A stretch of 28,455 nucleotides of DNA from a virus (taxonomy: Duplodnaviria; Caudoviricetes). Below the pieces are notes generated by a model. That model was not told the DNA's origin. It made no database searches and saw only the letters and a program-made list of their open reading frames with translations. The stretch covers positions 1-28,455 of IMG/VR virus record IMGVR_UViG_3300038674_000223. One strand, written 5' to 3'. The translations under genes and the position numbers were made by a program. This document shows positions 2 to 26,420 of the stretch, piece by piece (position 1 is the stretch's first letter; each line of letters opens with the position of its first letter).

Positions 2-877
2 AGCACTCCCCCCGCCCTCCCCGAGTCCATCCCATCACACACCCAGGCGTGCCAGACCGCCCTCGCCAATCTCTCATCCGTCCCCCCAGCCACCCTGGCC
101 CCCTCCTCCGCTGCTCCCCTCATCGCCCCCGCCGAAGATGAGCAGTGCCTCCTCTCCTTCTTCACCGTTGAGGGGATCTCCCGTGCCCTTGTTACAACCC
201 AACTGACCGTCGAGGAGGAGTTCCGCATCCTGGCTGAGATTGCCCGAGACCCCATCAACCCCATTGTCCGCATGACCGCCCTCGACAAGATCAGAACCCG
301 ACTCCGAGACGCCCTCCTGCTCTCCGGCCAGTTTCAACGCTGCGTCGCCACCCAAACCCGAACCAACCCCGACGGCTCAGCCCTCCAGGCCAAGCTCGTC
401 ACCACCCGACTTCTCGGCCACGCCACCGAAACTGAACGGCTCCTCGCCGCCGGTTCCCGCGTCTCCGAGATCCTCGACCTCAACACCCAACCCAACCCCG
501 ATGACCTCCCCGCTCTCGACTCGCCCGTCCCCCCTTTACAGGAGAACTCCAATGCCCCAGGAACGTCCGAAGTACCGCCGACCCGCCCCGATCCCGAGGA
601 ACGGCTCCCCGGCCCACGGCCCTTCCACCCCTCCGCCGACCCCGGCGCCCTCACCTTCAAACGGAGACCTCGTCCCCGGCCCAACCGAGACCTCGGTGGT
701 GGAGGACTTGCCCAATCAAGCCGACAAGCTGCCGACGCCGCCCGTACCTCTGCCGCCCGCACCGCTACCTCCCAATCTTCAGTCCGACAAGATCCACCGG
801 CAGGCTGTCCGGGCCAAGACGGCCTACCTGATGTTCCGTCGGACCCTGAACTACAACAACATCATCCCCTGGAATAA
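2..877 (+). CDS. Terminase small subunit-like protein (5'-truncated by window edge)
   Basis: The frame of ORF 272..877 is open back to position 2. It contains LTVEEEFRILAEIARD...VRMTALDKI, resembling the helical oligomerisation segment of TerS, and lies upstream of TerL. The C-terminal part is low-complexity and overlaps the next gene. Confidence 0.5.
   Translation, partial: STPPALPESIPSHTQACQTALANLSSVPPATLAPSSAAPLIAPAEDEQCLLSFFTVEGISRALVTTQLTVEEEFRILAEIARDPINPIVRMTALDKIRTRLRDALLLSGQFQRCVATQTRTNPDGSALQAKLVTTRLLGHATETERLLAAGSRVSEILDLNTQPNPDDLPALDSPVPPLQENSNAPGTSEVPPTRPDPEERLPGPRPFHPSADPGALTFKRRPRPRPNRDLGGGGLAQSSRQAADAARTSAARTATSQSSVRQDPPAGCPGQDGLPDVPSDPELQQHHPLE
512..525 (+). repeat. 14-bp dispersed motif GCTCTCGACTCGCC, copy 1
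   Basis: Exact match; ends 26 nt upstream of ATG 552. Confidence 0.95.
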
Positions 878-1103
878 GCTCCCCCAGGCCGCTCGGTTCA
901 GCATCATGGCCGCTCTGGTCCGTCGGTTCGACGATCTCCGAGACGACGACCCCCTCCTCCAGGGAATTGCCAAGTTTGCCCCCCACACCACCACCCGCAG
1001 GGCTACCCGAATGCTGGCCCACCTGTACGGCTTCGAGGCCCTCCATGCCTGGCTCGCCACCCAGGGTGCCCCCGCTCTCGACTCGCCTCCGGAGACGACC
1101 TGA
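552..1103 (+). CDS. Hypothetical phage protein (Pro-rich N-terminus, helical C-terminal domain)
   Basis: ORF 501..1103; the better start is ATG 552, preceded by AGGAG (540-544). Its TGA overlaps the TerL ATG (TGATG). Confidence 0.7.
   Translation: MPQERPKYRRPAPIPRNGSPAHGPSTPPPTPAPSPSNGDLVPGPTETSVVEDLPNQADKLPTPPVPLPPAPLPPNLQSDKIHRQAVRAKTAYLMFRRTLNYNNIIPWNKLPQAARFSIMAALVRRFDDLRDDDPLLQGIAKFAPHTTTRRATRMLAHLYGFEALHAWLATQGAPALDSPPETT
1074..1087 (+). repeat. 14-bp dispersed motif, copy 2
   Basis: Exact match; ends 15 nt upstream of TerL ATG. Confidence 0.95.
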
Positions 1104-2989
1104 TGCCTGTCCGAATACCGCGGCAAGGCAACCCGCTCTACCCCCTCCCGACGGACTACGCCGCGCTGTCCGCCGAAGGCCAGCGCTTGGCCCGCCTCAA
1201 TGCGCTCCTGCTCCAGGAGACACCCGAGGACGTAGTCCACGCCTGGTCGTTCTTCCGTCGCTGGTACCTGGAGCCTGAAGACGCCCACTGGTACAAAGCC
1301 TGGTGCCCCTCCCCCCCTCTCCACTACCAAATGATTCACGATATGGCGGCCTACAGCCGCAATGTATGGGCTGCTCCCCGGGCCTTCTCGAAGACCACCA
1401 TCCTCCGAGAAGCGGCCATTCTGACTCTGCTGACACGCCCCTCCTTCGACATCCTGAACCTCCAGGCTACCATCAAGCGTTACCGGCTGGGCATGGATGC
1501 CATCAAGACGCTCTTCGAGACCAACAAGTACATCCACGACGACTTCACGGAGTTCTTCGGTGAGCCCATCGTCCCCAAGCGAGGGCGCCGACCCTGGGGC
1601 ACCGAAACCATCCGGCTGCCCAACCAGTCCACCCTCGAAGGCGGCTCCGTCCAGGGTGCCCTCCGTGGTGCCCGGCCGGACCTCCTCATCATCGACGACC
1701 CTGAATACGACGAGGACCAGTCCAACGACCAACAGGCCCTCATCGAGGACTTCGAGCGGCTCCTCTTCAAGACCCTCCTCCCCATGCTCCTGCACGGCTC
1801 AGTCATGTTCTGGATCGGCACCCTCATCAGCCGCCAGTCCTTCCTCTACTCTGTCACCCGTGGAGAGGATCCCCGCTTCACCCACTTCAATCGCCGTGTT
1901 CTAGGCATCCGGGCGGACGACGGCACCCTCATCTGGCCCGAGCGGTGGGATGCCCAGACGGTCCAAGACCTCCGTACCGAGATAGGTGAGTCCGCCTTCC
2001 AGTCCGAATACATGAACAATCCGGGCTCCGTCACCGCCCGCATCCTGAAACTCCACCCGGACTTTGGAACCTACTCTGTAGACGGTCCCGTCCACCGACT
2101 GGGCTCCCCCCTGGCCTGCCAGGACTTCTCCATCCACTACAAGCGCAAGATCGTCCAGGGGGACCAGATCACCGTCCTGAATGTCCAGGAACCCTTCGGG
2201 CCTTGGGCTTCCCGGCTCTACCGGGCCATCACCGTAGACTTCGTCTTCAAGCCCTCCCACACCTCCGACTTTGCCTGTATCGGGGTCTGGGGCTACGACG
2301 AGGAAGACGTACTTTGGGTACTCGACCTCCACCTTGAACGAGTCCGGGGTGCCCCCTTCACCCGCCGTATATTCGAGATGGCCTACCAGTGGCGAGTCCG
2401 AATCATCGGAACCGAGTCCGTCCCCGCCCAAGAGGAAATCTCTCAGGAAACCGCCGAGTTCGTCAGCGAAATGGCTGCCGGGACCGGCTATGTCCCCCGA
2501 GTCATCCCTATCCGATATGCTTCCCGCAAGGCTCCCCGCAACCTCGATGCCCCCACCAAAATCTCCAAGCAAGAACGGATCGCGGCCCTCGAAGCCCGGT
2601 TCGCTCGCCAGAAAATCCGCTACCCCCTCCACCGTAAATCCGAGTTTGCCATCGGCCAACTCTTCCACCAGACCGACTATTTCACCCTGGACCTCTCCCT
2701 CCTCCGCTTCGACGACGCCATCGACACCCTGGCCATGAGCCAATATCTCCCTCGCCGACGGGGAGACAGACCCCCCAACGCGCCCCCTTCCAACCAGATT
2801 GTAGACCTTCTCAGGTCCGGCCGGACTGTGGATCCCGCAACCGGCATCCCCTATGCCGCCTCCGGGTCTTCAGATGTTTTTACACCCGATGTGCTCAGTC
2901 GGCTCCGTCGCCAGAAATACGGAGACCGATACACCCAAGAAAAGGAGATTTCCCAATGGCCACCTGGACCCCCTCGCCTGACCTTCTAG
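1103..2989 (+). CDS. terL: Terminase large subunit
   Basis: Walker A-like APRAFSKTT, Walker B LRGARPDLLIIDDPE, coupling motif WIGT, linker LIWPERW...FQSEYMNNP, and RNase H-like nuclease acidic motifs AITVDF, SDFACIG, FDDAIDTLA. Confidence 0.95.
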   Translation: MPVRIPRQGNPLYPLPTDYAALSAEGQRLARLNALLLQETPEDVVHAWSFFRRWYLEPEDAHWYKAWCPSPPLHYQMIHDMAAYSRNVWAAPRAFSKTTILREAAILTLLTRPSFDILNLQATIKRYRLGMDAIKTLFETNKYIHDDFTEFFGEPIVPKRGRRPWGTETIRLPNQSTLEGGSVQGALRGARPDLLIIDDPEYDEDQSNDQQALIEDFERLLFKTLLPMLLHGSVMFWIGTLISRQSFLYSVTRGEDPRFTHFNRRVLGIRADDGTLIWPERWDAQTVQDLRTEIGESAFQSEYMNNPGSVTARILKLHPDFGTYSVDGPVHRLGSPLACQDFSIHYKRKIVQGDQITVLNVQEPFGPWASRLYRAITVDFVFKPSHTSDFACIGVWGYDEEDVLWVLDLHLERVRGAPFTRRIFEMAYQWRVRIIGTESVPAQEEISQETAEFVSEMAAGTGYVPRVIPIRYASRKAPRNLDAPTKISKQERIAALEARFARQKIRYPLHRKSEFAIGQLFHQTDYFTLDLSLLRFDDAIDTLAMSQYLPRRRGDRPPNAPPSNQIVDLLRSGRTVDPATGIPYAASGSSDVFTPDVLSRLRRQKYGDRYTQEKEISQWPPGPPRLTF

Positions 2990-3252
2990 TTATCCTGGCA
3001 CTCTCTCTGGCCGCCATCACTGTCATCGTCTCTTCCGGGCTGACCGCCTGGATGGGGATTCTCTTCCTCCGGATGAGCCGCCAGCAAGCCCTCACCCGTG
3101 CGATGGACTCCGCAGATGAGCGGGACCGCATCCTGGCCATCCGTGCCCTGGCCTCCCAGCTTCCCCGCCCCCCCTCCTCTCCATCCGGACCCACCAGAGA
3201 ACCAGCCGTCCCGTCCCCCACCGTCGGAGTGAAGCTGTCCGGCAGCCTTTGA
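2956..3252 (+). CDS. Small membrane protein (one N-terminal hydrophobic segment)
   Basis: RBS AAGGAG at 2942-2947; hydrophobic stretch LLVILALSLAAITVIVSSGLTAWMGILFL. Confidence 0.7.
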   Translation: MATWTPSPDLLVILALSLAAITVIVSSGLTAWMGILFLRMSRQQALTRAMDSADERDRILAIRALASQLPRPPSSPSGPTREPAVPSPTVGVKLSGSL

Positions 3253-3281
3253 ACGGATGAGGAGCCTGTACCTATATTCCA

Positions 3282-3310
3282 TTTACACACGCCTTCTCCC
3301 TGTATACAAT
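3282..3310 (+). promoter_or_regulatory. Sigma70-like promoter for the head module
   Basis: TTTACA (3282-3287), 17 nt spacer, TACAAT (3305-3310) in an AT-richer intergenic gap. A second TACAAT at 3352-3357 has a weaker -35 (GTGACT, 16 nt spacer). Confidence 0.7.
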
Positions 3311-3371
3311 AAGGCGCGATGATAGTGATGTGACTCACCGAGTCCGCACCGTACAATGAAGGGAGAACACG

Positions 3372-3842
3372 ATGGCGCTAACTCATCGACTCCGGCGTAA
3401 CACCCTCAACCCGGAGGACAAGGAAAATCCTCTCTTCCTCCACCGAACCGCCACCCTCGAAGCGGTGGACACCAGTGGTCGGATCAACCTCTTCGGGGCT
3501 CAGAAGCCCTGGGCGCCCGAGAAGGCCAACGTCCCCTCCCGGATGGCCCGACCCGGCTACCTCAGTGCCGTCCAGGTGGACAACTCCGACAACGATGAGG
3601 CCACCTACCTCAAGCTCTACGACTCGATTGACCCTACATTCGGAACGACCGAGCCGGTTGTCGTTCTGAAGATCCCCGCTCAATCCAATGTGCTGACCCC
3701 CCTCCTACTCCCCACGGGCCTCCACTTTAGTGAGGGCCTGTCGCTGGCTTGTGCCAAGGAAGGCGGTGGGGACTGCACTACCGATCCTGACGAGGACGTA
3801 ACTGTCACGCTGTTCTCGCCCCAGCGGATGACTCTGACTTGA
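3372..3842 (+). CDS. Small beta-rich phage protein, paralog 1 of 3 (possible virion decoration protein)
   Basis: RBS GGGAG; shares the pattern YLKLYDS..PTFGTTEP.VVLKIPA...GLHFSEGLSLAC with the next two ORFs. Confidence 0.8.
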   Translation: MALTHRLRRNTLNPEDKENPLFLHRTATLEAVDTSGRINLFGAQKPWAPEKANVPSRMARPGYLSAVQVDNSDNDEATYLKLYDSIDPTFGTTEPVVVLKIPAQSNVLTPLLLPTGLHFSEGLSLACAKEGGGDCTTDPDEDVTVTLFSPQRMTLT

Positions 3843-3875
3843 GCCAAGCCTACAAGCCATGAAAGGAGAACGAAC

Positions 3876-4259
3876 ATGGCCAGCGCAGCTTTGAAGGTTC
3901 TGGACGAAACCCCTGGAAATCTCTCCCTCCTTCGAACAACCGACCTGGAGGACGATGGGCTTCCCAACGTCATGAAAGGCCCATGCAATCTCTACGGAAT
4001 CTTCGTCCACAACAACGGAGCCGGAACTCCTGAAGCCATCGCCCTCAGACTGTGGGATGACACAGCCCCCACGGTGGCATCCGACGAGCCCGACTTCGTC
4101 TTCACGGTGGCCGCCGGGGCAATCACCTTCATCCCTTGCCAACTGCCCTCTGGGATTCCGTTTGCCAACGGGCTCACCATCGCCGCCGAATCAGTGGCCA
4201 ACGGTGACACTCCCGACACGGCGGTCATCGTCGAACTGTACGCTGGCCCCGCCAGCTAA
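3876..4259 (+). CDS. Small beta-rich phage protein, paralog 2 of 3
   Basis: RBS AAGGAG; LRLWDDTAPTVASDEPDFVFTVAAG...GIPFANGLTIAA. Confidence 0.8.
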   Translation: MASAALKVLDETPGNLSLLRTTDLEDDGLPNVMKGPCNLYGIFVHNNGAGTPEAIALRLWDDTAPTVASDEPDFVFTVAAGAITFIPCQLPSGIPFANGLTIAAESVANGDTPDTAVIVELYAGPAS

Positions 4260-4319
4260 CCGCACTGGGATGGCTCTCGACTCGCCAGCCAGTCGCACGG
4301 AGATGGCTCTCGACTCGCC
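4250..4319 (+). repeat. 33-bp imperfect tandem repeat carrying motif copies 3 (4273-4286) and 4 (4306-4319)
   Basis: 4250-4282 and 4283-4315 match at 28/33 positions; both motif copies are exact. Confidence 0.95.
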
Positions 4320-4340
4320 TGATAACTAAGGAGTAGGACT

Positions 4341-4752: not shown

Positions 4753-6966
4753 GTGTTCCACCTTCCCAAGCGGGAAGAAGACCGTGTGACCGTCCTCAAT
4801 CAGATGAGGAACGCCGCCGACATGGAGATTCTTCCTTTCCGTGTCCAGTGGCTGGTCAACCATTGGTGGTTGCAGGGGTACCGGAATCTCCGCCGCAATT
4901 ACTTGACGGGCTCTGTAGACGCCAACTTCTTCAATTATGAGGATGCTGACCTCGACGACCTGAATGGTGTTCCTCGAAGCCGGGTCCGTATCGAGGAAGT
5001 TGTCGTCAAGTACCAGGCGGAACTGGGCCGACTCCTCAAAATGGACATCCGGCCTTCCGCTGCCCGCAAGGGCTTCGGACTGGACTCTATCCGTAAGGCG
5101 GCCGCCGCTCGGGTCATCCTCGAATATCTGACCGGACCAGTCTGTTGGGACACCTTCAAGCTGACCTTGTTCCCCAAGCTCCTGACCTTTGGGTGTGCGG
5201 GAATCGGTTGTTGGGCACGGGCCTCCACTGAGGCCGGGTCCGAGTCCAAGCCCCAGATCCCCTCCGCCGAGGATGACTTCACAGGTCGAGACCAATCCGT
5301 CGATACGGACCTCAACGTCATCCGGGGGCTGGTGGACGACTCTACGCTTCTCCCTACGTCGTCACCACCCTCCGCCATCGAGTCCCGGCTGGCCCTTGAG
5401 GTGATTCCGCCCTGGCAGCTTCTGCCTATTCCCCACCGGCCCACCACTCCCGATGAGGTTGAAGGGATCATCCGACGAAGGTGGGTAACACTGGATTGGC
5501 TCAAGAGCCGTTCCGGGCTGAAGCTACCCCGTGACCAGGCCAAGCTGAATCTTCGCGACGCTCCCTACGGCATAAGGCCTGATCCCTCTTCACCCATCGA
5601 AGTAACCTTCATGACGGGCTATGATGCCCGCACCCAGGAGTCTAACCGTACAGGTTCGTCCGGCCGCTCTTCCTTCACTCAGTATGCCCAACTCGAAGAA
5701 TACTTCCTGCTCCATGACGAGAAGGACCGCCTCTGCCGGTGGATCGTCAAAGTAGGCGACCACATCTGTGCGGACTACACCTATGAGGATCGTTCCGTCT
5801 ATATGCCCATCGGGATCTCTCGGTACCATCCAACCGGGGGATTCTATGGTCGATCCTTCGTCGAACTTCTCATCCCCTTAAACCAAGAGCAGGAGGAGAT
5901 GGCCTCCATCCTGTTCGACACGGTCAAAGACCTGTCGGCATTCGGCACCCAACTGGTTCCGGCCAACATCGGTATCTCCAAAGAAGAACTCACCCAGCAC
6001 CGTCACCGAAACAAAGTGTTGCTCTACGAACCCGACCCGACAGTAGACACCCCCAAGATCCTCTCTATTACCCCTGTCAACTTCAACGATTTTCCGGGCA
6101 AGGTCATGTCGGTGGCGAGCCAGATGATTGACCGCCTCACCCAACAGAACGACCTGATGCGTGGTGAGGCCCCCGGTCGTGTCGATAGCGCCCAGGGGCT
6201 GGCCTTCCTCCATGAGACTGGCTCAACACCTCTGGGTGTCCCAGCCAACTCTATCGCTCAGGGGCTCACCCAGGTCTACCGGGAGATCCTGGCGGCTGCT
6301 CCGGACCTCCTGTCCGGCCGTCAAGCTCTTCCTCTCCTGGGTATCGACGACAACCTGGTCGGGCTGGTCGTCAACCCAGAGGACGGCACCATCAGACTGA
6401 ATGCTACCAACTTCCCCAGCCCCTCCGAGGTTGAACTGGGAGTCCGGGACAAGCTGCCTGGCCCTCCCACCCTCCGGGAGCAGAAGCTCCTCTCGATGCT
6501 CAAAGCCGGGATCATCAACCCCGTCGAGTTCCGCTTCACCGTCTGGAAGGAAAATCTGGACATCCCTGTCGCCAACTGGGCCGAACAGGAGTCCTTCCGC
6601 AAGGCTACTCTCCAAGTTCTTCTTCTCTTTGGCGATGGGGAGGAGCCCGGCCAGATTATCGCCAGCACCGCTGCGGACCAGCCTGAAGTTCACCTCATGG
6701 TCATCAGCCAGTTTATGGCCAAGATCGAGTTTCAGTATGCGTCTACCGCCGTCCGGGAAGCATTCGAGAAGCTCAAGCAGACCTACATGAGTTTCCTGGG
6801 CCGAGGCTATCCAGACCAGTTGCCCTACCCGGAGGACGCCGCCACGCTCGAACAACAGGCCGGCCCCCCCGGTGGTATGCCTCCAGGCATGGGAGCAGGT
6901 ATGGGGGCAGGCATGGGAGGGGGCATGAACATGGCAATGATGGGGAGAGGGGGCGCTCCGGGGTAG
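4753..6966 (+). CDS. Portal protein (podovirus/P22-like head-tail connector)
   Basis: About 740 aa, between TerL and scaffold/capsid. Motifs FYGRSFVELLIPLNQE and MRGEAPGRVDSAQGLAFL; Gly/Met-rich tail. GTG 4753 follows AAGGAG (the ORF track starts at 4699). Confidence 0.88.
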   Translation: MFHLPKREEDRVTVLNQMRNAADMEILPFRVQWLVNHWWLQGYRNLRRNYLTGSVDANFFNYEDADLDDLNGVPRSRVRIEEVVVKYQAELGRLLKMDIRPSAARKGFGLDSIRKAAAARVILEYLTGPVCWDTFKLTLFPKLLTFGCAGIGCWARASTEAGSESKPQIPSAEDDFTGRDQSVDTDLNVIRGLVDDSTLLPTSSPPSAIESRLALEVIPPWQLLPIPHRPTTPDEVEGIIRRRWVTLDWLKSRSGLKLPRDQAKLNLRDAPYGIRPDPSSPIEVTFMTGYDARTQESNRTGSSGRSSFTQYAQLEEYFLLHDEKDRLCRWIVKVGDHICADYTYEDRSVYMPIGISRYHPTGGFYGRSFVELLIPLNQEQEEMASILFDTVKDLSAFGTQLVPANIGISKEELTQHRHRNKVLLYEPDPTVDTPKILSITPVNFNDFPGKVMSVASQMIDRLTQQNDLMRGEAPGRVDSAQGLAFLHETGSTPLGVPANSIAQGLTQVYREILAAAPDLLSGRQALPLLGIDDNLVGLVVNPEDGTIRLNATNFPSPSEVELGVRDKLPGPPTLREQKLLSMLKAGIINPVEFRFTVWKENLDIPVANWAEQESFRKATLQVLLLFGDGEEPGQIIASTAADQPEVHLMVISQFMAKIEFQYASTAVREAFEKLKQTYMSFLGRGYPDQLPYPEDAATLEQQAGPPGGMPPGMGAGMGAGMGGGMNMAMMGRGGAPG

Positions 6967-6971: not shown

Positions 6972-6998
6972 CCGCAGACCCGGCTCTCGACTCGCCCT
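6972..6998 (+). repeat. Motif copy 5 (6983-6996) within a 27-bp sequence identical to 18850-18876
   Basis: CCGCAGACCCGGCTCTCGACTCGCCCT, just after the portal stop codon. Confidence 0.95.
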
Positions 6999-12830: not shown

Positions 12831-15233
12831 GTGGGCTTGAACCAGAACTGGACATACGAGTTTGGGTTGCCCGTGGCCGACTATCGGACGGAACCGGCCG
12901 CCATCTCCTATGGTATGAACACCGATCTCGTAGGTGTGGACGGCCGGTTCGTCGGCGTCCTGAAGAGGGCACCCGGGTTTGACCGTTGCTCTCGACTCGC
13001 CCTTACTACTACGGGTGAGTCCTCGGGATTCCAGCTTAGCGCGTTTAGCACGGGATTCCGCCGCAGTCGAGCCCTGGACTTCTTCCGGTATGCCGAGGTC
13101 TACAAGGGTACCACCGGGGTCATCCTCCGGGGCTTTGTTGTCCGTACCGGCCACACGTTGGCCTTCCACTACTACGATCCCCAGGAGGCCCAGTGGCTGA
13201 GCCACACGATCAGTGAGGAGTCGGCAGGCCCCATCGACATTACCTATGGGCCGAGGGCCATCTACTATACGTCCAGCCGGAGACGAGGACGTACTGTATT
13301 CTGGCATGAGGGAGAGTTCGTCAACCTGCCGTTCGGCCCCGCTCACCCCTCGGGGGCCATGATGCTGGTCCCTTCCGGCCCCATGTCCACCAACAAAGCG
13401 ACCGGGGCTTTGAGCACGCCGGTCAACCAGGACGGCCGGTACCAGATCGGAGTTCGACTCAGCGATTCTCGAAGGGGAGCGGCCACCCCCCTCTCCTGGT
13501 ACATGCTCGAAGATCCCCTGGCGCCGTCCTGGGTCAGAGAGACCCCCGCCGTTCCTCCTTCCTCCAGCCTCTACTACTTGTCCGTGGGCATTACGATCAG
13601 CCCCGAGGATGCTCGGTCCTATGACACCATAGAGGTGTACCGGTCCATCCGGGAAGGCTCGTACCTATACCGGGCATTGACCTGGCATGCCCCTTCCGAA
13701 GTTGCGGGTGCCCAAACCCTGGCGGACCTGACGGGAGTACGGCCTACTCTGTCGGGGGGAGTAACCAACAATCCTCCTTCCCCTCTGGGAGAGCAGGGGG
13801 GCGTCGTCATTATCCAGTTGGGGAACAAGAACCTCAATGGAAACATCGTAACTCTCCGCGAGGGGGTCCGCTGCCTGACGAGTGGAGTAGATGACACCCT
13901 GTTGTCGTACCTGTCGTCCTTCGACTTTCAGGAGGATACGGCGGCTGGACCGATACGGGCCTCCACTCTTCTCTATTCGGGTGGGGCGTTGTTCGCGGCG
14001 GGTGATGACCTGAATACAACGCGAGACGGTGGAGACATCCGGTTCAGCGTGTTGACTCAGCAGATGCCCGAGATATTCCCCGGATTGAATGTCCACGGGC
14101 TGGCCCGGTCGTCGGATCGAATCCTCCGCTTCCTCAAGTCCGGCAGCCTGGTATACGGGATCAGCCGAGACAAAGTGTATCGGCTGACTCGTGTAGGCAA
14201 CTTGGTCGCCTCCGAGCAGATGGATACTGGGTGGGGAGCGGTTGGGGCTGAGGCAGCAACGAATCTCGGACCCGATCTGGTCTTCCTCAGTTCCAGTGCT
14301 CTTCTTTCCATTCAGGCATCGTCCGGAACCCTGTCCACCATAAGCATTGTGGACCGGATCTTGAACCATCTATCGGAGTGGGGCGAGTCGAGAGCGGGGG
14401 TGTTCCTCGCCTACGATGCCGCTATGGCCGTCCTGTATCTGATTAACCCCGTCAAGGAAGAGGCGCTGTTGGTTTGGGGCACCTCGAATACGGTGACTCG
14501 CCGGAAGGACATGAACTTCGTCGCGGCCACTTCTGGCGTCCACCCTGTATATGGAGGTGGGGATCGTGTATTCCTGGTGACGGCTACTGGGCTGGTAGTC
14601 TCCTCTCCAGTGTCCTCGGAACCAACCACCCAACTGGGTATCGCGGGTACCATCAACGGGGTTGTCCGAGCCTCGTCGAGCGGGTCGGAGTTGTACGATC
14701 CCACCGCCCAGTTTGCGGCCGATCTCGTGGACTGCTATCTCTACATCCTGACGGGTGAGAATGCGGGGGAGAAGCGGCGCATCACCAGCAACACAGTCCA
14801 CCGCCTGGCTCTCGACTCGCCTCTTAGTGTGGAGAAGGGTGATCGTTATACGATCAGCCCGGTGCCTTTTGAGGTGGTGGGGTGGCCGCTGGGTTCGTCG
14901 GAAGACCCGAATCTGCCACGGGACTACTTTGTTCGGAGAAGGACTAGGGCACTGGGGGCCTACTTGAGGTTGCCTGGAGGGAAGTACGGGACTCCAACGG
15001 ATGACCATGCGCCCTATCCTTTGGTGACGGTGGGAGTATATGATGATATGAGTGAGCCTCCTGTCCATTCCGACTCCTTTGTGGTGCAGCAGGAGACTCA
15101 CGACAACTTTGGGCGGGTGGTGGCTGGTCGGGGGACACTGCTGCCTTTTGTTCAATGTTTGGTGTCGGGGCTCCCTCTGGAGATGATCTCGATGGTTGTC
15201 TCCGGGGAGGTAGATGACACGATGGAGATGTAG
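12831..15233 (+). CDS. Tail nozzle / tail tubular protein B-like (beta-propeller-type)
   Basis: 800 aa, beta-rich; RBS AGGAGGAG; N-terminal VLKRAPGF, internal IRFS...PEIFP and GAVG...LVFLS patterns; precedes the ejection-type genes. Confidence 0.7.
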   Translation: MGLNQNWTYEFGLPVADYRTEPAAISYGMNTDLVGVDGRFVGVLKRAPGFDRCSRLALTTTGESSGFQLSAFSTGFRRSRALDFFRYAEVYKGTTGVILRGFVVRTGHTLAFHYYDPQEAQWLSHTISEESAGPIDITYGPRAIYYTSSRRRGRTVFWHEGEFVNLPFGPAHPSGAMMLVPSGPMSTNKATGALSTPVNQDGRYQIGVRLSDSRRGAATPLSWYMLEDPLAPSWVRETPAVPPSSSLYYLSVGITISPEDARSYDTIEVYRSIREGSYLYRALTWHAPSEVAGAQTLADLTGVRPTLSGGVTNNPPSPLGEQGGVVIIQLGNKNLNGNIVTLREGVRCLTSGVDDTLLSYLSSFDFQEDTAAGPIRASTLLYSGGALFAAGDDLNTTRDGGDIRFSVLTQQMPEIFPGLNVHGLARSSDRILRFLKSGSLVYGISRDKVYRLTRVGNLVASEQMDTGWGAVGAEAATNLGPDLVFLSSSALLSIQASSGTLSTISIVDRILNHLSEWGESRAGVFLAYDAAMAVLYLINPVKEEALLVWGTSNTVTRRKDMNFVAATSGVHPVYGGGDRVFLVTATGLVVSSPVSSEPTTQLGIAGTINGVVRASSSGSELYDPTAQFAADLVDCYLYILTGENAGEKRRITSNTVHRLALDSPLSVEKGDRYTISPVPFEVVGWPLGSSEDPNLPRDYFVRRRTRALGAYLRLPGGKYGTPTDDHAPYPLVTVGVYDDMSEPPVHSDSFVVQQETHDNFGRVVAGRGTLLPFVQCLVSGLPLEMISMVVSGEVDDTMEM
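12988..13001 (+). repeat. 14-bp dispersed motif, copy 6 (intragenic)
   Basis: Exact match; read as C-SRLA. Confidence 0.95.
14382..14395 (-). repeat. 14-bp dispersed motif, copy 7 (only inverted copy)
   Basis: GGCGAGTCGAGAGC on the + strand; read as GESRA. Confidence 0.95.
14808..14821 (+). repeat. 14-bp dispersed motif, copy 8 (intragenic)
   Basis: Exact match; read as ALDSP. Confidence 0.95.
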
Positions 15234-15235
15234 AA

Positions 15236-17224: not shown

Positions 17225-18916
17225 ATGGCGTTTGGTGGAAATAGGCAACGAATCAGCGGGCCGATCAGCCCGATGGGTCCGTCCATTGGGGGGTTCACGC
17301 CTGCTCAGCAGGTGATTGATCCTCAGCAGTCGGCGATTCGGCAACGGTCGTCTGAGGCGCTGATGGAGGCGATCCGGGCTGGGTCTGAGGACTTGTCGAA
17401 GAAGCGGGCACAGGAAGCCCAGATGGCCCACGAAAGCGGGATGGAGCAGATGAAGCAGTCGGGAGAGAACTCTCGACAGATGACTGGTTTGCTGGCCGGT
17501 CTGGGCAGCCAGTTCATGCAGCAACGCCATGCCTCGAAGGAGTCGGCGGCCCAGCGAGAGCTTGACGAGCGGCTTGCGGGCCTCCGGGAAAGTGGCCTGG
17601 ACCGCAGGTGGGCGGCTGAGTTGCAGGCCCGCAAAGATTCTCAGAGCCAGACGGAGGCATTTTCGAGGGAGGTCCGGAAAGACCTTCAGGCCCGAATGGA
17701 TGCACAGCGTGCCCTCGAAGGTCTCACGTCGGGGATGCCTGATGACTACGAGGGTCTGTTGGCGCCCTACAGTGCGGCGTATGAGCACTTGAAGCAGGCG
17801 GAGATAGAGGCTCTGCAACTGGGGATGGGCCTGTATCTGGATCAGCTTTATGGGGGGGATCTGAGGTCGAAGATGTTTGGGATGACTCCCACATCGGACC
17901 TCATGAGGGCGGGAGGTATGAAGGAGGGGATGGGGGCGTCGAGCCCGGCCCGCATCATGGACGACTATATGAGGGAGAGCGGGAGCTTCCAGTCGGCGGG
18001 ACAACAGCCCAGTTCAGCGGTCATGAAGGGCTTTCGGGCCTTCAAGGACAGCATGGACCAGATGGTCCAGTTGAAGGATCAGACCGACCAGTTGAGGCAG
18101 AGTGTGCCGGTCATGATGGTTTTCGGACAGGACGCGGACCTCAGCCAGGGCCTCAAGGGTGTTGCCGTCCGAATGATGGGGATGCAGGGGGTTACGCCTG
18201 TTGTCTCTTTGGGGGAGATGCTCAACCAGATGGTGACGGTGTTCGGGGGAAAGCAGCCCCCCGAGTCGGTCGAGAAGGTTGCCATCCAGCCCCAGATGGC
18301 CTACCAGGTATCCAGTTGGCTGACGGATGCCAAGGCTGCGCTGTATAACCAGTATGATATCCTGGAGAATACTCCCTCTCTGATTCCTCCAGAGGAGCGT
18401 GAGACTCGGAAGAATCAGATCATGGGCGTGGTTCGACAGATCGACCGGATTCAGGGCAACTACCGGAAAGTGATGGGCCAGGTCGAACATCGGATGAGCA
18501 TGGTGCCCGCATACCAGGAAGGAGAGTGGGGCGACCGGCTGACGAGTGGAGACTATCCGACAATGAGGGAGGCGGTCCAGGAGATCCAGGCCCAGAAGAA
18601 TCGGCTGGCCTCATTGATTGACGGCGTTCCGATGGACCAGGTCCAGGAGGTTGTCCAGACCGCGAGGAGTGACGAGATCCGGAAGATCCAGCAGGCCAAC
18701 ATTCGGACTTCCATGCTGATGTCGGAGGGGCGCTACGAGGAAGCCATGCAGTTTATTTCTCAGACGTTGGATGAAATCTCTGCGTCTCGGCAGCAGCGGA
18801 CCCGAGAAGTCCGGAAGATGCTGCCTACCTACAAGGATGTCCAAGGTGCCCGCAGACCCGGCTCTCGACTCGCCCTTCCGGCGGCGGATGAGCCTATGGG
18901 GCCGACTGTTGAATGA
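17225..18916 (+). CDS. Putative internal virion / ejection protein
   Basis: RBS AGGAG; Gln/Met-rich helical protein; gene order. Confidence 0.6.
   Translation: MAFGGNRQRISGPISPMGPSIGGFTPAQQVIDPQQSAIRQRSSEALMEAIRAGSEDLSKKRAQEAQMAHESGMEQMKQSGENSRQMTGLLAGLGSQFMQQRHASKESAAQRELDERLAGLRESGLDRRWAAELQARKDSQSQTEAFSREVRKDLQARMDAQRALEGLTSGMPDDYEGLLAPYSAAYEHLKQAEIEALQLGMGLYLDQLYGGDLRSKMFGMTPTSDLMRAGGMKEGMGASSPARIMDDYMRESGSFQSAGQQPSSAVMKGFRAFKDSMDQMVQLKDQTDQLRQSVPVMMVFGQDADLSQGLKGVAVRMMGMQGVTPVVSLGEMLNQMVTVFGGKQPPESVEKVAIQPQMAYQVSSWLTDAKAALYNQYDILENTPSLIPPEERETRKNQIMGVVRQIDRIQGNYRKVMGQVEHRMSMVPAYQEGEWGDRLTSGDYPTMREAVQEIQAQKNRLASLIDGVPMDQVQEVVQTARSDEIRKIQQANIRTSMLMSEGRYEEAMQFISQTLDEISASRQQRTREVRKMLPTYKDVQGARRPGSRLALPAADEPMGPTVE
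18850..18876 (+). repeat. Motif copy 9 (18861-18874) within a 27-bp sequence identical to 6972-6998
   Basis: Exact 27/27 match. Confidence 0.95.
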
Positions 18917-18988: not shown

Positions 18989-19915
18989 ATGCCACGATCT
19001 AAGTATGATGATCTTCGGGATCTTCTTGGGGGTCAGGACTTGTTCCAGAAATCTCAGGGCGAGACGGACCAATATCTCAGTGAGTTTCTCGGGCTGGGAG
19101 GTGGGGAAGCCCCGGGGGCATCTCTTCCAACAAACTGGTTTGATCGGCACGAGGCTAGGACAGGCAACAAAATAGTGTATGGAGTTCCCCCTAGTGCACC
19201 GGGGGCGGAGACCGTCGGAACCGAGGAGTCGAGCACGCTGTCTGATCTGACACCCTTGCTTGTTTCGTTGGGCTTGTCGGTGCTTACCAGCCGAATGGGA
19301 CTCGGCCCAGGAGTGGGGGCTGGAATTGGGGCTGTAGGCAAGGGTTCTCGTGCCTACCGGGCAGGCCAGGCGGTCCGCAAGGGGTTGGGTAAGTTGACCG
19401 GAGGCAGGCTGGGGGGTGGCCCGGCTGCGAAGACGGCGGCACCAGCAGTGGCTGACGTGGGCAAGAAGGCTGTGGAGAATGCAGTGAAGGGGGGAGGGTG
19501 GGGCTCGAAGTTCACGAAGGTGTTGGGTGTTGCGGGGCTGGGAAGTCTGGTCGCCGAGCCGATTGTAGGGGGGTTGCAAGATACCATCGCAAGAGTGTCG
19601 GGGTCGCCGACCCGAGCGGAGCGACAGGAAGAAGAACGGTTGAATATGGAGATTGCGGCCCTGTCCAGGAAGCGGGGGGCTGAACAGGCTCTGGCGGAAG
19701 AGGAGTTGAAGTTCCGGAAGGAGTTGGTGACAGCAGAGCGGGAGATGGTAAAGGAGAGGGCGCACCAGGAGATGCTGATGCGGCTGACAGAGATTGCGGA
19801 GCAGAATCGGAGAGGGCGAGTCGAGGGGCTCATGAACATTGAGCAAGCAATCGTGAACAGTCGAGTGCAGCATATGGACAGCCTGCGGGACATCATGACT
19901 GGGTGGGCTCGCTAG
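18989..19915 (+). CDS. Putative ejection protein (Gly-rich hydrophobic segments plus coiled coil)
   Basis: ATG 18989 follows GAGGTG; glycine-zipper-like GLGPGVGAGIGAVG; C-terminal coiled coil. Confidence 0.65.
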   Translation: MPRSKYDDLRDLLGGQDLFQKSQGETDQYLSEFLGLGGGEAPGASLPTNWFDRHEARTGNKIVYGVPPSAPGAETVGTEESSTLSDLTPLLVSLGLSVLTSRMGLGPGVGAGIGAVGKGSRAYRAGQAVRKGLGKLTGGRLGGGPAAKTAAPAVADVGKKAVENAVKGGGWGSKFTKVLGVAGLGSLVAEPIVGGLQDTIARVSGSPTRAERQEEERLNMEIAALSRKRGAEQALAEEELKFRKELVTAEREMVKERAHQEMLMRLTEIAEQNRRGRVEGLMNIEQAIVNSRVQHMDSLRDIMTGWAR

Positions 19916-21613: not shown

Positions 21614-24600
21614 ATGGATAGGCCGGATTTTCGGGTGCTTGGTGGGGCTGGTGGGGCTGGCGGGCAGTCGGTGGGGGGATTTGAGTCCCCTCGGTTTATA
21701 GATAGACCCCGGTTGGCGGCCTGGAATCTGGCCAAGAGGGGCGACCCGAATGCGGCTTGGCGGTCCATGCTCCAGCCGGAGAGCTTGTCACCCGAGGAGA
21801 TGGGGTGGCAACCGGGTGAAGATGGGTCGATAGTTGGGTCGGTTATCCGGACACTGACCAACCCGATGGTTATTCTGGGGGCAGCACTGGCCTACAAGTA
21901 TCCGGTGGGGGCGGCCCGTGAGGTACTGAAGAAGGCCACGGGGGCCTTGAAGGGATATGATCGGATGCTCCCCCCGGTGATTCACCGGTTGATGGGGCCT
22001 CGGGGCATCTTTGGGAAGACCAAGTTCCTGCATTATCTGGAGGGGTTCGCGGCCGACTCGAACCACTTTAAGGCTGCGGTGACGAGCAAGGCGGGAGCCG
22101 GGCTCGACAAGTTCATTGCGAGAATGGGGAGGGCACCTACCCAGGCGGAGCAGGTGGCTGCCTCGATGGTCAGCGAGGGACTGGTCCAGAATAGTGCACA
22201 TCCATCGTGGCAGTTGGTGAGGAGACTGGCCCGGAAGGAAATGTACCTGGAGAAATACAGGAGTTCGATGGATACCGGGAAGCTCAACCGGCTGATTCGG
22301 GATGCCATCAATGCGGAGAAGAAGGGCTTGATGGGCGGGGATCTGGACATCGAGAAGAAGCTGAGGTTGGTAGGATCGGTAACTCAGCGGGACTACCTCA
22401 TGAAGCTGGCTCCCCCCGAGTTGGTGGAGTCGGGGAAAGAGTCCTTGATGGACGGACTCCGCATGATGGTTCAAGGCCGGAATGTCCAGAGGCTGACCGA
22501 TGTGAAACAGGTTCGGAGGTTGATAAGTGATAAGGGAATGGAGAAGATCCTGGAAGTACGACAGGCGACTCCGGCCCAACTACTGGATATGGCCCACAAG
22601 AAAGGATTGGATCTGCCGTCAGTGCCCCTGGAGAAGAAGGCTCAGGCCGCATTCTTCAAGGATCTGAAGGCAAAGCTGGAGTTCGGGTACCGAGAAGGGT
22701 ACTGGCCGCATTCGACTCATAGGACACCGGCTCAGCAGGAAGAGTTCGTACGGATGATGTATGAGCAGACGGCGGCGGAACGGCAGGGCATGCTGCTGTC
22801 GGGGCTGGAGCCGGTCAGCCCGAGGGCCAAGGCGTTCAGGAACGCGACCATCCCTGATGCGACGGACTTCGAGTTTGTCAGCCAGGGGTTCAGTCCCGAG
22901 ACGGCCGAGGTGCTCCGGTACCTGAAGAAGATCCCGGAGACGAAACTGGTAAACGGGGAGATCGTGACCACGGGGGCCTCCAAGTACAAGACGTACTCGC
23001 TGTACTGGAGTGCCGTCATGGAGAACTATGGGAACTCGATGGCTTCGACGTATGCCTGGAGTGCTCGGGGGTGGGGTCCGAAACTGATCCAGGAGGTTGA
23101 GGGGCCGATGTGGGTGGCCTCTCAGAAGTCGGCGGCGGGTCGCCTCAGGTATCATATCGCAAAGGAGAATGTGCTCCCGGTTGCCCTGGGTAAGCTGAGC
23201 CAGACGGAGGCGATGTACGCACTGCAATGGGGGGGCCTGAAGAAGCAGGCGTTCGACTTCTTCACTGAGACGGCAAAGTCAAACAAGTGGGGACTGGGGA
23301 GAGAGTCTCAGTGGCTGGCGGACCAGTTGGCCCGTCCGGAGATGCGGGATCTGACGTTCAAGAATGCGGGAGCTAAGCTGGCGGGATACCTCTACCTGAG
23401 TGCGTTGGGATTGAACCCAGCCAGTGCCGGGCTGAACCTGTTTCAGAACATCACGCATACTACGGGCCTGGTGCCGTTCCCCTATGTGGCGAAGGGGATG
23501 CGCGAAGCCTCAAAGGGGATGCCTACTTTCCTGAAGAAGGTGGGATCGGGGACGAAGATCGAGCAGGCATTCCTGGAGGCATGGCCGGAGTACCTGAAGC
23601 TGGGGGGGTCGTCGTCTGAAGTGTCGGAGATGTTGAGGCGAGTCCGGATGGGCGCTGGGGGGATTGCCTCCGCAAGTCGAATAGAGCAGGCCAAGAAGTT
23701 GGTCATGGGGATGTTTAGTGGGTCGGAGCGGTTCAATAAGCTGACGGCATACCATGCGGGTCGGCTGTGGGGTCTGGGAGAGAAGCTGCCTGCCTGGCAA
23801 GCGGAACGGGTAGGCATGGAGATCATGAATAGGACTCAGTTTCCGGGGGGGTTCCTGAGCCAGTCAATCATGATGCAGGGCTGGTGGCCCCCCTTCAGGC
23901 AGTTCACCCAGTTTCCCGCCAGGACATTGGAGTTGTTCACGAGCAGTCCAGGTACGATGGGCCGGATGATGGCTACTGCCGGAGTAGCCCATGAGGCTGG
24001 AAGGGCGATGGGGGTGGACTTGTCGAGAGCGATGGTGTTCGGGGCCATGCCTCAGCCTATGGGGGAAGATCAGCCGTTCTTCCCGATGCCATTCATGCCG
24101 CCGCTGTTGGGTGTGATTGGGGGGGTGGGGTCGGACCTGTTCTCGGGGGAGGCGGGGTTCACGAACACGAGGAGAAATCTACCGCTGGCGATGCCGGGAG
24201 GCGTGGCCCTGGCCCGGGTCAATCAAGTGTATGGGTCTCCGGCGGTGGCCAAGATGATCGGTCGGGGATATGCGGACTACCGGAACCCGAGGGCCGACGG
24301 CACAATCCCCGTCTATACGGCGGATGGATCATTGAGGGAGTTCCAGAGCCCCGTGGGATTATTCAAGAAGGCGGTGGGCTGGAACACCCTCATGGGCGAC
24401 CAGGAAGCGGACCTGACCAGCTATCTGGTGACTCAGCGAGACCGAATCCGGAACTACCGGAGATCCTACATTGAGGCACTGGCCGCAAACGACATGACAC
24501 GGGCCTCCACGATTCACGGAGAGTATAAGAGGGCATACCCACAGTTGGGAGACATTGTGGTGAAGCCTTCGGATATTCGGGCAGTCCACCTTCGGCATGA

Positions 24601-24919
24601 CGTGACGAGGTTGGAGCGGGTACTGGAGACAATGCCTCAGGATGCACGGGAATTGTTCGGAGGAATGGTGGGCGTGGCGATGGGGGAGATTGGGGACCAG
24701 ACCCTGGGGATGGACCCTGCCATGTTGACTCGCCAGTCAACGATTGCCAAACGAGATCCCTACCGTCGAGTCCCCCGGGGAGAGCAGGCCAGCAGGGTGG
24801 CCCAACAGATAGGTGGGGAGGAGGAGGAGCGCCCTCGAATCCGGATGGATCAGACGGGGTCGATTGGTGGAGGCGGTCAGTTTTCGGCGTTCGCACCCTT
24901 CAACGTGTTCGGGAATTAG
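21614..24919 (+). CDS. Large internal virion / ejection protein
   Basis: 1101 aa, last gene of the operon; YLSALGLNPASAGLNLFQ and RTQF...PFRQFTQFP resemble motifs of large podovirus ejection/polyvalent proteins. Confidence 0.65.
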   Translation: MDRPDFRVLGGAGGAGGQSVGGFESPRFIDRPRLAAWNLAKRGDPNAAWRSMLQPESLSPEEMGWQPGEDGSIVGSVIRTLTNPMVILGAALAYKYPVGAAREVLKKATGALKGYDRMLPPVIHRLMGPRGIFGKTKFLHYLEGFAADSNHFKAAVTSKAGAGLDKFIARMGRAPTQAEQVAASMVSEGLVQNSAHPSWQLVRRLARKEMYLEKYRSSMDTGKLNRLIRDAINAEKKGLMGGDLDIEKKLRLVGSVTQRDYLMKLAPPELVESGKESLMDGLRMMVQGRNVQRLTDVKQVRRLISDKGMEKILEVRQATPAQLLDMAHKKGLDLPSVPLEKKAQAAFFKDLKAKLEFGYREGYWPHSTHRTPAQQEEFVRMMYEQTAAERQGMLLSGLEPVSPRAKAFRNATIPDATDFEFVSQGFSPETAEVLRYLKKIPETKLVNGEIVTTGASKYKTYSLYWSAVMENYGNSMASTYAWSARGWGPKLIQEVEGPMWVASQKSAAGRLRYHIAKENVLPVALGKLSQTEAMYALQWGGLKKQAFDFFTETAKSNKWGLGRESQWLADQLARPEMRDLTFKNAGAKLAGYLYLSALGLNPASAGLNLFQNITHTTGLVPFPYVAKGMREASKGMPTFLKKVGSGTKIEQAFLEAWPEYLKLGGSSSEVSEMLRRVRMGAGGIASASRIEQAKKLVMGMFSGSERFNKLTAYHAGRLWGLGEKLPAWQAERVGMEIMNRTQFPGGFLSQSIMMQGWWPPFRQFTQFPARTLELFTSSPGTMGRMMATAGVAHEAGRAMGVDLSRAMVFGAMPQPMGEDQPFFPMPFMPPLLGVIGGVGSDLFSGEAGFTNTRRNLPLAMPGGVALARVNQVYGSPAVAKMIGRGYADYRNPRADGTIPVYTADGSLREFQSPVGLFKKAVGWNTLMGDQEADLTSYLVTQRDRIRNYRRSYIEALAANDMTRASTIHGEYKRAYPQLGDIVVKPSDIRAVHLRHDVTRLERVLETMPQDARELFGGMVGVAMGEIGDQTLGMDPAMLTRQSTIAKRDPYRRVPRGEQASRVAQQIGGEEEERPRIRMDQTGSIGGGGQFSAFAPFNVFGN

Positions 24920-24949
24920 TGCCAGACTTCAATGTGTTCGGGGATTAGT
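24898..24949 (+). repeat. Tandem duplication of a gene 3' end
   Basis: CTTCAACGTGTTCGGGAATTAGT (24898-24920) vs CTTCAATGTGTTCGGGGATTAGT (24927-24949), 21/23 identical. Confidence 0.9.
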
Positions 24950-25064
24950 AGGGGTCAGTAACGAGAAAGACCCAGCAGCAGGATGCTACCGGGCCTATCT
25001 CGACATGCTAGGTGATCCCCGATGATCTGTTTCTCCCGGTGACTCCACCTCCCTTGTTGACTGT

Positions 25065-25164
25065 TGAAAGGCTGTCTCCGGCAGCGGACCCTGCTGTAGA
25101 CAGCTATCCATGAGACGGCCCGGAGCCCCCACAGTGAAGGCTCCGGGCCTGCTCTCGACTCGCC
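25065..25164 (-). ncRNA. Candidate small RNA beginning with the reverse complement of the 14-bp motif
   Basis: Predicted +1 at 25164; 5' end GGCGAGUCGAGAGC; 11-bp hairpin at 25117-25149; second hairpin at 25071-25104 followed by CUUUC. The 3' end is approximate. Confidence 0.5.
25151..25164 (+). repeat. 14-bp dispersed motif, copy 10
   Basis: Exact match in the convergent intergenic region. Confidence 0.95.
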
Positions 25165-25170
25165 ATCCTC

Positions 25171-25198
25171 AGTATACATCAGGAATCTGGAGAGGCAA
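25171..25198 (-). promoter_or_regulatory. Sigma70-like promoter firing antisense to the structural operon
   Basis: On the - strand: TTGCCT (25198-25193), 16 nt spacer, TATACT (25176-25171). Confidence 0.6.
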
Positions 25199-25230
25199 GT
25201 CCACTTTGCGGAGATGCAGTGATTATTTTG

Positions 25231-26388
25231 TCACTCCTCGGGTAGGCACGGGTCTTCTACCCAGCCGGTCGGAGGGGTCTCCGGTAAGGCGGTTGAGTCC
25301 GGAGAGTAGACCAACTCGGCTCCCTCGTTCCAGAGGTCCGCAACTGCCGCGTCGGTGAGGCCCGTCCTCCAGATGAGTACATTCCGAATGGATATGTCAC
25401 TTCTCCATAGTCCGGGGCCTCCTCCAAGGTAGAGCATGATGGGGAGAGGGTCGTCCGAGCCGGATGGCTCCAGTTCATAGATGGTGGGAATCCCGAACCG
25501 GGTGACGTTGCTGTCTGCGGGGGTAAGTGACTCGCCATTCAGGTTGACGTAGCAGGTTCCAGAGATTCGACGAATGACAGCATGGTACCACTTGCCAATC
25601 TCGATGACACCGGTGGCACCCTGGAACATGAGGGAAGGTTCGTTGACCCCCTCACCGTAGATACCGGGTCCGTTGACACAGAAAGTAAACCCAGTCTCGT
25701 TGAAGGGGCCAGTAGAGATAGATACACGCCATGTGGGGTTGTCAGCAGGGGGTGACGCGATTGCAAGGATCTGGTTGGCGAACTCGTGGAGCATGCGAAA
25801 GGTAACACTGATGGTAAAGTCCTGGTCGGTGTCCCACCAGAGTTCGTAGTTCCCGTCGCTGCGGGAGTAGGCGGAAAGGCCCTCAGCTTCCGGGTTGCCG
25901 TACTGGAAGCCGCTGCCTAGGTGAATGATGTTGCTCTCTTCAACGTTGAGCATGTTGATGGGGAAGAAGGGAGGGCCGCCCGGCCGGGGGGTCAAGACGT
26001 TGAGGGGCGGGCCGGACAGTTCATTCATGGGGAAGCAACAGAGGAAGTATGGGGCGGCCGCATCCACGGACGCTCGGCCGAACCCTGCGATGGTAGCAGT
26101 CTGGAAGACAAAGTCTGAGAAGGTATCAACGGCCCCCTGAACAGCAGCCAAGAGTCCATCACAATCCAGAACACCCTCATTGAGGAAGGATGGGGCCAGG
26201 CTTTGGGTGACTCGGAGGGCCAGGTCTAGCCGGATGGATCTCTGGACGGCGGTAGCCAACCGGCTGTCCGTACTGCCGATAGTCTTGAGGATGGCGTCAG
26301 TGTTGTTCTGGGCGGTTAGAAGGCCCTGGGCCTCGATCAAGCGGTTGAAGGCCAGAGCAGTCTCCGGCCCCGGTTTCAGGTTAGCCAT
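25231..26388 (-). CDS. LamG / concanavalin A-like lectin domain protein
   Basis: FTISVTFR ... IEIGKWYHAVIRR...YVNLNG ... LYLGG ... IRNVLIWRTGLTDAAVADLWN follows the Laminin_G_3 pattern; RBS GGGAG. Confidence 0.8.
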   Translation of the reverse strand: MANLKPGPETALAFNRLIEAQGLLTAQNNTDAILKTIGSTDSRLATAVQRSIRLDLALRVTQSLAPSFLNEGVLDCDGLLAAVQGAVDTFSDFVFQTATIAGFGRASVDAAAPYFLCCFPMNELSGPPLNVLTPRPGGPPFFPINMLNVEESNIIHLGSGFQYGNPEAEGLSAYSRSDGNYELWWDTDQDFTISVTFRMLHEFANQILAIASPPADNPTWRVSISTGPFNETGFTFCVNGPGIYGEGVNEPSLMFQGATGVIEIGKWYHAVIRRISGTCYVNLNGESLTPADSNVTRFGIPTIYELEPSGSDDPLPIMLYLGGGPGLWRSDISIRNVLIWRTGLTDAAVADLWNEGAELVYSPDSTALPETPPTGWVEDPCLPEE

Positions 26389-26406
26389 AGTCAGTTCTCC
26401 CGAGCC

Positions 26407-26420
26407 GCTCTCGACTCGCC
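26407..26420 (+). repeat. 14-bp dispersed motif, copy 11
   Basis: Exact match in the 33-nt gap upstream of the LamG gene; a - strand TACAAT lies at 26429-26424. Confidence 0.95.

Follow-up and report, generated by a model that had tools for sequence, protein, structure and literature searches.

A private 14-base word dispersed through an uncultured tailed phage: candidate repressor sites within a drifting family of phage words

The 28,455-nt stretch analyzed here (IMG/VR virus record IMGVR_UViG_3300038674_000223, positions 1 to 28,455; hereafter the window) comes from an uncultured tailed phage, of which it forms the late-gene arm, and carries an asymmetric 14-base word, the 14-mer, in eleven exact copies, ten on the + strand and one on the − strand (Table 1). 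The array is real, selected, and family-wide, with relatives of the phage carrying dispersed words of their own. We favor, tentatively, a reading in which the 14-mer is the site of a lineage-specific DNA-binding repressor, acting as an operator at promoters and as a roadblock elsewhere. A protein that binds double-stranded DNA is preferred because no other reading accounts for the fixed register between words and promoters, and a directional roadblock because it accounts for the strand-wise spacing and oriented pairs of the words in relatives.

A motif scan recovered every copy at the coordinates and on the strands given in a first-pass annotation made from the sequence alone, along with its partial matches at 19815 (−, 12/14) and 10741 (a 10-mer). 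An order-3 Markov expectation of 0.00 bears out the statement in that annotation that the count lies far above chance. The window holds no copy with one mismatch and two copies with two mismatches (19815, −; 28258, +), the latter of which had been overlooked. Beyond the complete words, the 3′ half-site GACTCGCC occurs in 8 further copies against 1.5–2.1 expected; the 5′ half shows no enrichment. Between copies 6983 and 18861 the identity runs to 27 bases, 13 of them outside the 14-mer (P = 0.0002 against shuffled flanks), which would point to duplication, and not point mutation, as the origin of some copies. Contigs from metagenome run X2, which was not flagged as a source, span copies 18861, 25151, and 26407, and L069, a locus 98.3% identical to the window, retains five copies at matching places; the 14-mer is therefore not an assembly artefact, a possibility that the annotation had listed. 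None of the 188 differences between the window and L069 falls within the five shared copies, where only about one would be expected, and contig ends close to copies were too few to interpret.

The 14-mer was found in 89 viral loci (15 of them seen only as ~600-bp stretches), with more than one copy only in L069 and in L051. The latter, an 8081-bp contig, has genes for a UDG-fused family A polymerase, for nucleases of the ERCC4 and PD-(D/E)XK types, and for an AAA_24 ATPase, and contains seven copies (three + and four − once oriented by family gene order). Its polymerase has homologs in 12 of the 14 family genomes, and L051 was present in all four runs examined, including run X1, where 30/30 bins were covered at a depth of 7–10 against 9.3 for the window's contig. 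L051 is thus very likely the replication arm of the window phage or of a close strain. No contig joins the two, and about a quarter of the phage genome is unseen, judging from relatives of 50–57 kb.

Window and L051 together contain 18 exact copies in 36.5 kb. The earlier proposal that the polarity of the word follows the genome loses its footing here: the bias of 10 + to 1 − in the window alone (p = 0.012) drops to 13 + to 5 − with L051 added (p = 0.096), so that a genome polarity is not established, and the words of relatives lie on both strands with no link to transcription. Relative to transcription, the copies of the window phage run 11 with and 5 against by automatic gene calls, or 13 and 5 by hand. 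With hand-curated genes, 7 of the 18 are intergenic against an expected share of 6.8% (p = 1.1e-4), and the other 11, inside genes, are read in all three sense frames and in antisense, including the frames ALDSP, SRLA, and GESRA noted previously. Seven of the eight copies in core genes of the window phage fall below the median protein conservation, as do 80 of 132 intragenic words pooled across genomes (p = 0.018). The use of several frames and both senses, and the placement in poorly conserved protein stretches, uphold the earlier view that selection acts at the DNA level.

Turning to the copies near gene starts, those preceding the start codons at 552, 1103, and 4341 do so by 26, 15, and 21 nt, as had been noted. 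The two + copies at 25151 and 26407 lie in a block of − strand genes, and their purine strands begin 6 and 3 nt, respectively, after the −10 box of leftward sigma70-like matches. Positions just past the −10 box are the usual location of operators. Copy 26407 had been taken as a sign of genome-following polarity; the two + copies in this block are better explained by the leftward promoter starts. In the relative G001, a different word sits 7 nt past the −10 box of a promoter at the equivalent place after the large virion gene, and, counting both window copies, G001, and G009, three different words keep a register in which the purine strand begins 3–7 nt past a −10 box.

A second fixed register was found in a clade of relatives that share the word CCTCCGCAG, examined at single-base resolution over 32 loci with 427 sites and 442 promoter-like matches. 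Thirteen sites begin 21–24 nt before the end of a −10 box, where chance would give 0.14 for each offset and strand, or ~1.1 for the eight cells concerned. These sites lie directly at or past the −35 box of near-consensus promoters, upstream of the polymerase operon or of small genes. Single spacer cases occur in G002, G003, and G004, and G009 has one at +1. Words overlap predicted early promoters, recognized by consensus only, at two window copies and in fixed register in relatives. A role of the word as a −35 element was rejected, no −10 box standing at the proper distance in the contexts inspected by eye.

The comparison with relatives covered 14 genomes or fragments (G001–G014; terminase 28–63% identical). 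A private dispersed word of 9–16 bases is present in 12 of them, in 9–57 exact copies against fewer than one expected; G001 has five copies of a 12-mer, and no dispersed word was found in G012. On a quickly built terminase tree of 47 rows, with words labeled by de novo scans, CCTCCGCAG is common to a clade of 13 rows (in one of them as CCTCCGCAA), and sister rows differ by single bases, so that the word system drifts with the phage phylogeny. The rows nearest to the window are G001 and G002, whose words are quite different; the word of G002 occurs at the portal–scaffold junction and ahead of the polymerase gene, as the 14-mer does at 6983 and at L051 7663. Words are intergenic in 9 of 11 cases in G002 and in 13 of 19 in G010. 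Strand ratios are near 1:1 in most relatives, and none of 19 rows shows an association of orientation with transcription at two-sided p < 0.05 (20/20 in G007, 10/9 in G009, 24/28 in G011).

Taken strand by strand, words in relatives are spaced more evenly than random on 11 of 24 strands from 12 genomes (Fisher p = 7e-13), 13 of 24 strands fall in the lowest 5% of count-matched control words, and mean per-strand gaps are mostly 1.5–5.5 kb. In G003 and in the five CCTCCGCAG-like clade genomes, the − copy that follows a C-rich + copy is closer to it than the − copy that precedes it (five pooled, p < 1/4000), and 18 of 21 further clade loci agree with this oriented-pair layout (medians 405 versus 2027 bp). 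The geometry is reversed in G013, absent from G002, G004, G009, and G014, and seen in G010 at p = 0.015 with an ambiguous strand assignment. Alternation of orientation is not a separate effect: 207 switches exceed the 162 of shuffled labels, but a circular-shift null gives 198.7 (p = 0.11), and the alternation follows from per-strand evenness. The close pairs mark neither origin-like AT-rich DNA nor gene starts (16/50 versus 16.0 expected). In the open-access literature, we found no description of this phage family or of phage words evenly spaced per strand. As further features of these genomes, G006 carries two 12-bp tandem-repeat arrays inside open reading frames (2371–2455 and 56768–57010), and a ubiquitin-like module (ThiF/E1, JAB peptidase, and ThiS-like) is encoded in G001 (L254:1202-3187 and L253:19498-19713), G002, G003, G005, G006, G009, G012, and G014.

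We propose that a sequence-specific protein, presumably phage-encoded, would dock on the word and repress host sigma70 promoters wherever the two overlap. Away from promoters, as at the intragenic copies, the bound word may act as a directional roadblock to RNA polymerase; with the even per-strand spacing and oriented pairs seen in relatives, such roadblocks would stop any transcript, in either direction, within a few kilobases. Transcription of phage DNA by the host would thereby be silenced across the whole genome, possibly as a late switch, a dormant state, or an exclusion of phages of the same type.

Monomeric repressors that bind dispersed asymmetric sites are described in mycobacteriophage L5 (PMC9283540, PMC6550527) and in P1, as C1 (PMC8546580), and by analogy the present array would work most like L5 stoperators and P1 C1 operators. 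Like the array of Cluster A phages (L5 gp71-type), it consists of a 13–14-bp asymmetric word with, in Cluster A, ~20–30 copies per genome, few of them at promoters and most elsewhere, and with a consensus that differs between related phages (PMC6550527, PMC9283540). Unlike the sites of L5, which are oriented with transcription, lie mostly in short intergenic spaces, and belong to a temperate phage with a known repressor (PMC6550527, PMC9283540), 11 of the 18 copies here are intragenic, their orientation is untied to transcription, and relatives mostly lack integrase and ParA and space their words evenly per strand. The 22 dispersed asymmetric 17-bp operators of P1 likewise repress adjacent promoters, but P1 is a plasmid prophage with a known C1 (PMC8546580), and most copies here have no nearby promoter. 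The stoperator analogy drawn in the first-pass annotation therefore stands for the likeness to dispersed asymmetric repressor sites and fails on orientation and lysogeny genes; the array is a new variant of dispersed asymmetric site arrays and not a member of the stoperator family.

Several observations weigh against repressor sites. The word of the window phage is itself not evenly spaced (CV 0.73, p = 0.31), so that the lattice argument rests on relatives, and these share ancestry and some orthologous sites, so that the p-values overstate independence. Intergenic enrichment is absent in G005, G006, G008, and G009. A broad promoter footprint gives no enrichment (12 versus 9.4, p = 0.24), the offset range of 21–24 was picked post hoc, and several of the 13 promoters are paralogous or orthologous. 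Eleven exact copies without a single one-mismatch copy are also stricter than most repressor sites. Finally, gene-family searches of 13 genomes (G013 left out) did not find the reader gene. They returned a tyrosine integrase in 2 of the 13 and in none of nine near-complete genomes, and no serine recombinase, ParA, or HTH_3 in any of the 13. With integrase, ParA, and serine recombinase mostly missing, there would usually be no lysogeny to maintain.

Among the genes examined, no candidate survives as sole reader. No CI-type repressor was found in the family genomes searched. A winged-HTH gene before the small terminase subunit (TerS) gene was detected in 10 of the 14 genomes, with a weak match in L069; its model is Xis/BldC-like over ~50 residues with all E-values above 0.001. 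This gene was rejected as the reader because three genomes with strong words (G003, G004, and G006) gave no match to it and its second helix varies among phages with the same word. The ERCC4 nuclease is 62–72% conserved in a same-word trio, yet is present in the word-less G012. Helicase loading was likewise discarded, as phages with the same word differ in helicase (AAA_25 in G007; D5-like in G008 and G011). Profile searches of three families against PDB gave nothing useful. Separately, G001 encodes beside its integrase a 97-aa protein (L253:4084-4374) with a ribbon–helix–helix look by eye and no Pfam match, which is possibly the repressor of that temperate relative.

A broader alternative, which we regard as possible though doubtful, is that the words form a private per-strand lattice, with a word every few kilobases on each strand and with oriented pairs, read by a phage enzyme either as a self-mark or as the priming signal of a family A polymerase that lacks a primase, the same enzyme doubling as a promoter repressor. 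If true, such a lattice would be a genome-wide signal of a new type, serving phage replication or the discrimination of self from non-self. In its self-mark form, which on its own is unlikely, the word would resemble Chi, halting or taming a translocating nuclease, whether from the host or from the phage (its Cas4/AddB-like exonuclease together with the AAA_24 partner), and would thereby shield phage DNA and make 3′ ends available for recombination-primed replication. The even per-strand spacing suits such a mark, as does the enrichment of the half-site GACTCGCC on its own (8 versus 1.5–2.1). In the CCTCCGCAG clade, moreover, G-rich strands that face each other are separated by long gaps and those standing back to back form close pairs, a layout that would limit losses from a break at any position, and the genes concerned are core: PD-(D/E)XK occurs in 12 and AAA_24 in 13 of the compared records, including L051, and ERCC4 is also core. 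The sites of Chi-rich lambdoid phages are similarly directional, exceed 20 copies per genome, and lie inside genes with a G-rich strand, but in the same report Chi is a host-defined octamer read by RecBCD, biased to one strand, clustered near an end, and associated with phages that have no recombination module (PMC12315714). The words here are lineage-specific, 9–16 bases long, and on both strands, in phages that possess such a module. A 14-base exact word is too long for this role, the promoter register is unpredicted by it, and the pair geometry is reversed or absent in the five relatives named above.

Slightly less plausible than the self-mark is a role as priming (or nicking) sites from which the family A polymerase copies both strands without a conventional primase. 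G001–G014 show a UDG-fused polymerase A, three interchangeable helicase-like gene types, and no recognized primase, and Prim-Pol, Toprim_2, and DNA_primase_S were found in 0 of 13 genomes while positive controls matched, which favors such a role, as do the mean per-strand gaps; a host primase or an unrecognized one may possibly serve these phages. The primase-polymerase of phage NrS-1 offers a parallel in its 8-base site, a long, phage-specific, single-strand signal for a replication enzyme (PMC8718748), but no primase-polymerase was found in the window phage family, and the word is longer and promoter-associated. Dispersed exact nick words are known from Pseudomonas phage tf and LUZ24-like phages, where a near-exact asymmetric word recurs in 8–14 copies per genome with slight variation between relatives; these words have nine bases and tf is nicked on one strand only (PMC3517423). 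Here words are on both strands, often less than 100 bp apart in relatives and in register with promoters, and the one-strand pattern of tf-, T5-, and phiKMV-type nick words fails at 13 + to 5 − in this phage and near 1:1 in most relatives. Opposite-strand sites are often 23–76 bp apart, and nicking at both would break the DNA. Against priming, phages with identical words carry unrelated helicases, the DNA within close pairs is not AT-rich, the window has a single − copy in 28 kb, and the promoter register is again unpredicted.

The remaining explanations are minor ones. A host-encoded reader (DnaA-like, a nucleoid protein, or an uptake signal), with the word following the host, is improbable, and bears on a second asymmetric word in the window, ACGGGCCTCCAC, which the annotation had overlooked. 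This word has six exact copies on both strands and is absent from L051. Its core is common to a digester phage of the L180/G017 type, which has two words on both strands, one of them being the second word of the window, spread over its whole genome; it is not found in G001 or G002, though these are closer to the window than the L180/G017 type (terminase ~48% identical). That distribution would fit a word that follows the host, as would the constancy of CCTCCGCAG over many phages of 40–55% GC. However, the 14-mer is private, both of the 89 loci with more than one copy belonging to the window phage; the word of phage L183 has five copies in the 3.1-Mb bin that holds this phage, three of them on the phage contig; and words drift along the phage tree.

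Binding sites for the small terminase subunit, at which packaging could begin at many points and promoters would be repressed only incidentally, are about as improbable as a host reader. A TerS-like gene is present in 14/14 genomes and in the window, where copies 512 and 1074 lie in or just past the TerS region, but G012 has such a gene without any word, leaving the packaging reading suggested earlier with little support. Known pac systems, moreover, use one or a few clustered sites. In this region (window 1–1103), the TerS-like reading frame ending at 877 overlaps the frame 552–1103, which has a strong ribosome-binding site, by ~325 nt in another frame.

Quite improbable is that the words are targets of a small RNA that would itself start with the word at the promoter 25171–25198 and act as guide or ready-made primer. 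The − strand region 24955–25168, gene-free and set between that promoter-like match and a terminator-like hairpin, converges on the end of the 1101-aa gene and is possibly an antisense small RNA. It opens with the word and folds strongly (z = −4.8), and base pairing would account for the all-or-none exactness of the copies. However, the matching region of G001 folds no better than shuffles (z = −0.8), no peak of words at +1 occurs in the large clade, and no Rfam match was obtained, so that the small-RNA reading, also raised earlier, has little behind it; gradual one-base drift of words would suit a protein better. Most improbable are promoters of a phage-encoded RNA polymerase of T7-like kind: several copies do lie 15–26 nt before start codons, but three patterns for the catalytic motif matched nothing when the genomes were read in all six frames, the 1101-aa protein looks like large polyvalent viral or virion proteins, and the orientation of words bears no relation to that of genes.

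Only in a few temperate phages is the function of dispersed asymmetric sites understood, and here such sites are inherited throughout an uncultured family, most near-complete members of which look lytic and none of which has a close cultured relative. The natural variants, from one-base changes to full replacement, could be used to pair each word with its reader, and the strand-wise spacing and oriented pairs give sharp predictions by which repression can be told from self-marking and from priming. Either a primase-free priming signal or a small, retargetable protein reading asymmetric words of 9–16 bases would have practical use.

Table 1. Words, promoter-like matches, and marker genes in the window
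Feature	Position	Strand	Remarks
14-mer copy	512..525	+	inside TerS-like ORF (ends 877), 26 nt before start 552
14-mer copy	1074..1087	+	end of ORF 552-1103; 15 nt before terminase large subunit start
14-mer copy	4273..4286	+	intergenic; first member of 33-bp tandem pair
14-mer copy	4306..4319	+	intergenic; directly 5′ of ribosome-binding site of ORF 4341; 21 nt before start
14-mer copy	6983..6996	+	portal / scaffold-like gene junction
14-mer copy	12988..13001	+	within 800-aa gene (family F6); frame SRLA
14-mer copy	14382..14395	-	within 800-aa gene, reversed; frame GESRA
14-mer copy	14808..14821	+	within 800-aa gene; frame ALDSP
14-mer copy	18861..18874	+	close to end of 563-aa gene
14-mer copy	25151..25164	+	purine strand starts 6 nt past -10 box of leftward sigma70-like promoter
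14-mer copy	26407..26420	+	purine strand starts 3 nt past -10 box of leftward promoter before 385-aa gene
Partial 14-mer copy, 12/14	19815..19828	-	
Partial 14-mer copy, 12/14	28258..28271	+	
Sigma70-like promoter match TTGCCT-16-TATACT	25171..25198	-	points at end of 1101-aa gene; consensus match only
Sigma70-like promoter match TTGGAA-18-TACAAT	26424..26453	-	consensus match only
Second word CACGGGCCTCCAC	3713..3725	+	further copies at 5216 (+), 9892 (-), 12646 (-), 24498 (+)
Second word CACGGGCCTCCAC, first base differing	13954	+	
Terminase large subunit	1103..2989	+	phrog_38, E 4e-53; family marker
Portal protein	4753..6966	+	phrog_156, E 0.002; start from relatives' gene comparison

Genes 3′ of the portal gene gave no library match over the cut-off and are likely head, tail, and virion genes by their position and conservation across relatives. 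Runs that contain the window, six of which were examined, are bioreactor, biogas, and wastewater metagenomes, and no close cultured phage relatives were found. Members of one related terminase cluster are assigned some to a Phycisphaerae bin and some to a Bacillota bin, a split that may be binning noise. In run X14, recorded as RNA, 2 of 30 window bins were covered, too little for expression. ARAGORN and Rfam scans of the window returned no tRNA or Rfam call. A tRNA-like cloverleaf at 27748–27900 (−), whose arms resemble acceptor, D, and T arms and which includes a long insert of two hairpins (z = −2.75), was called by neither program. It adjoins a 41-nt direct repeat (98%; 27896–27936 and 28078–28118) in a region where other strains have different neighbors. 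Across the whole window, the palindromes GGGCCC, CTCGAG, GACGTC, TGATCA, and GTCGAC are completely or nearly avoided, pointing to type II restriction pressure from the host.

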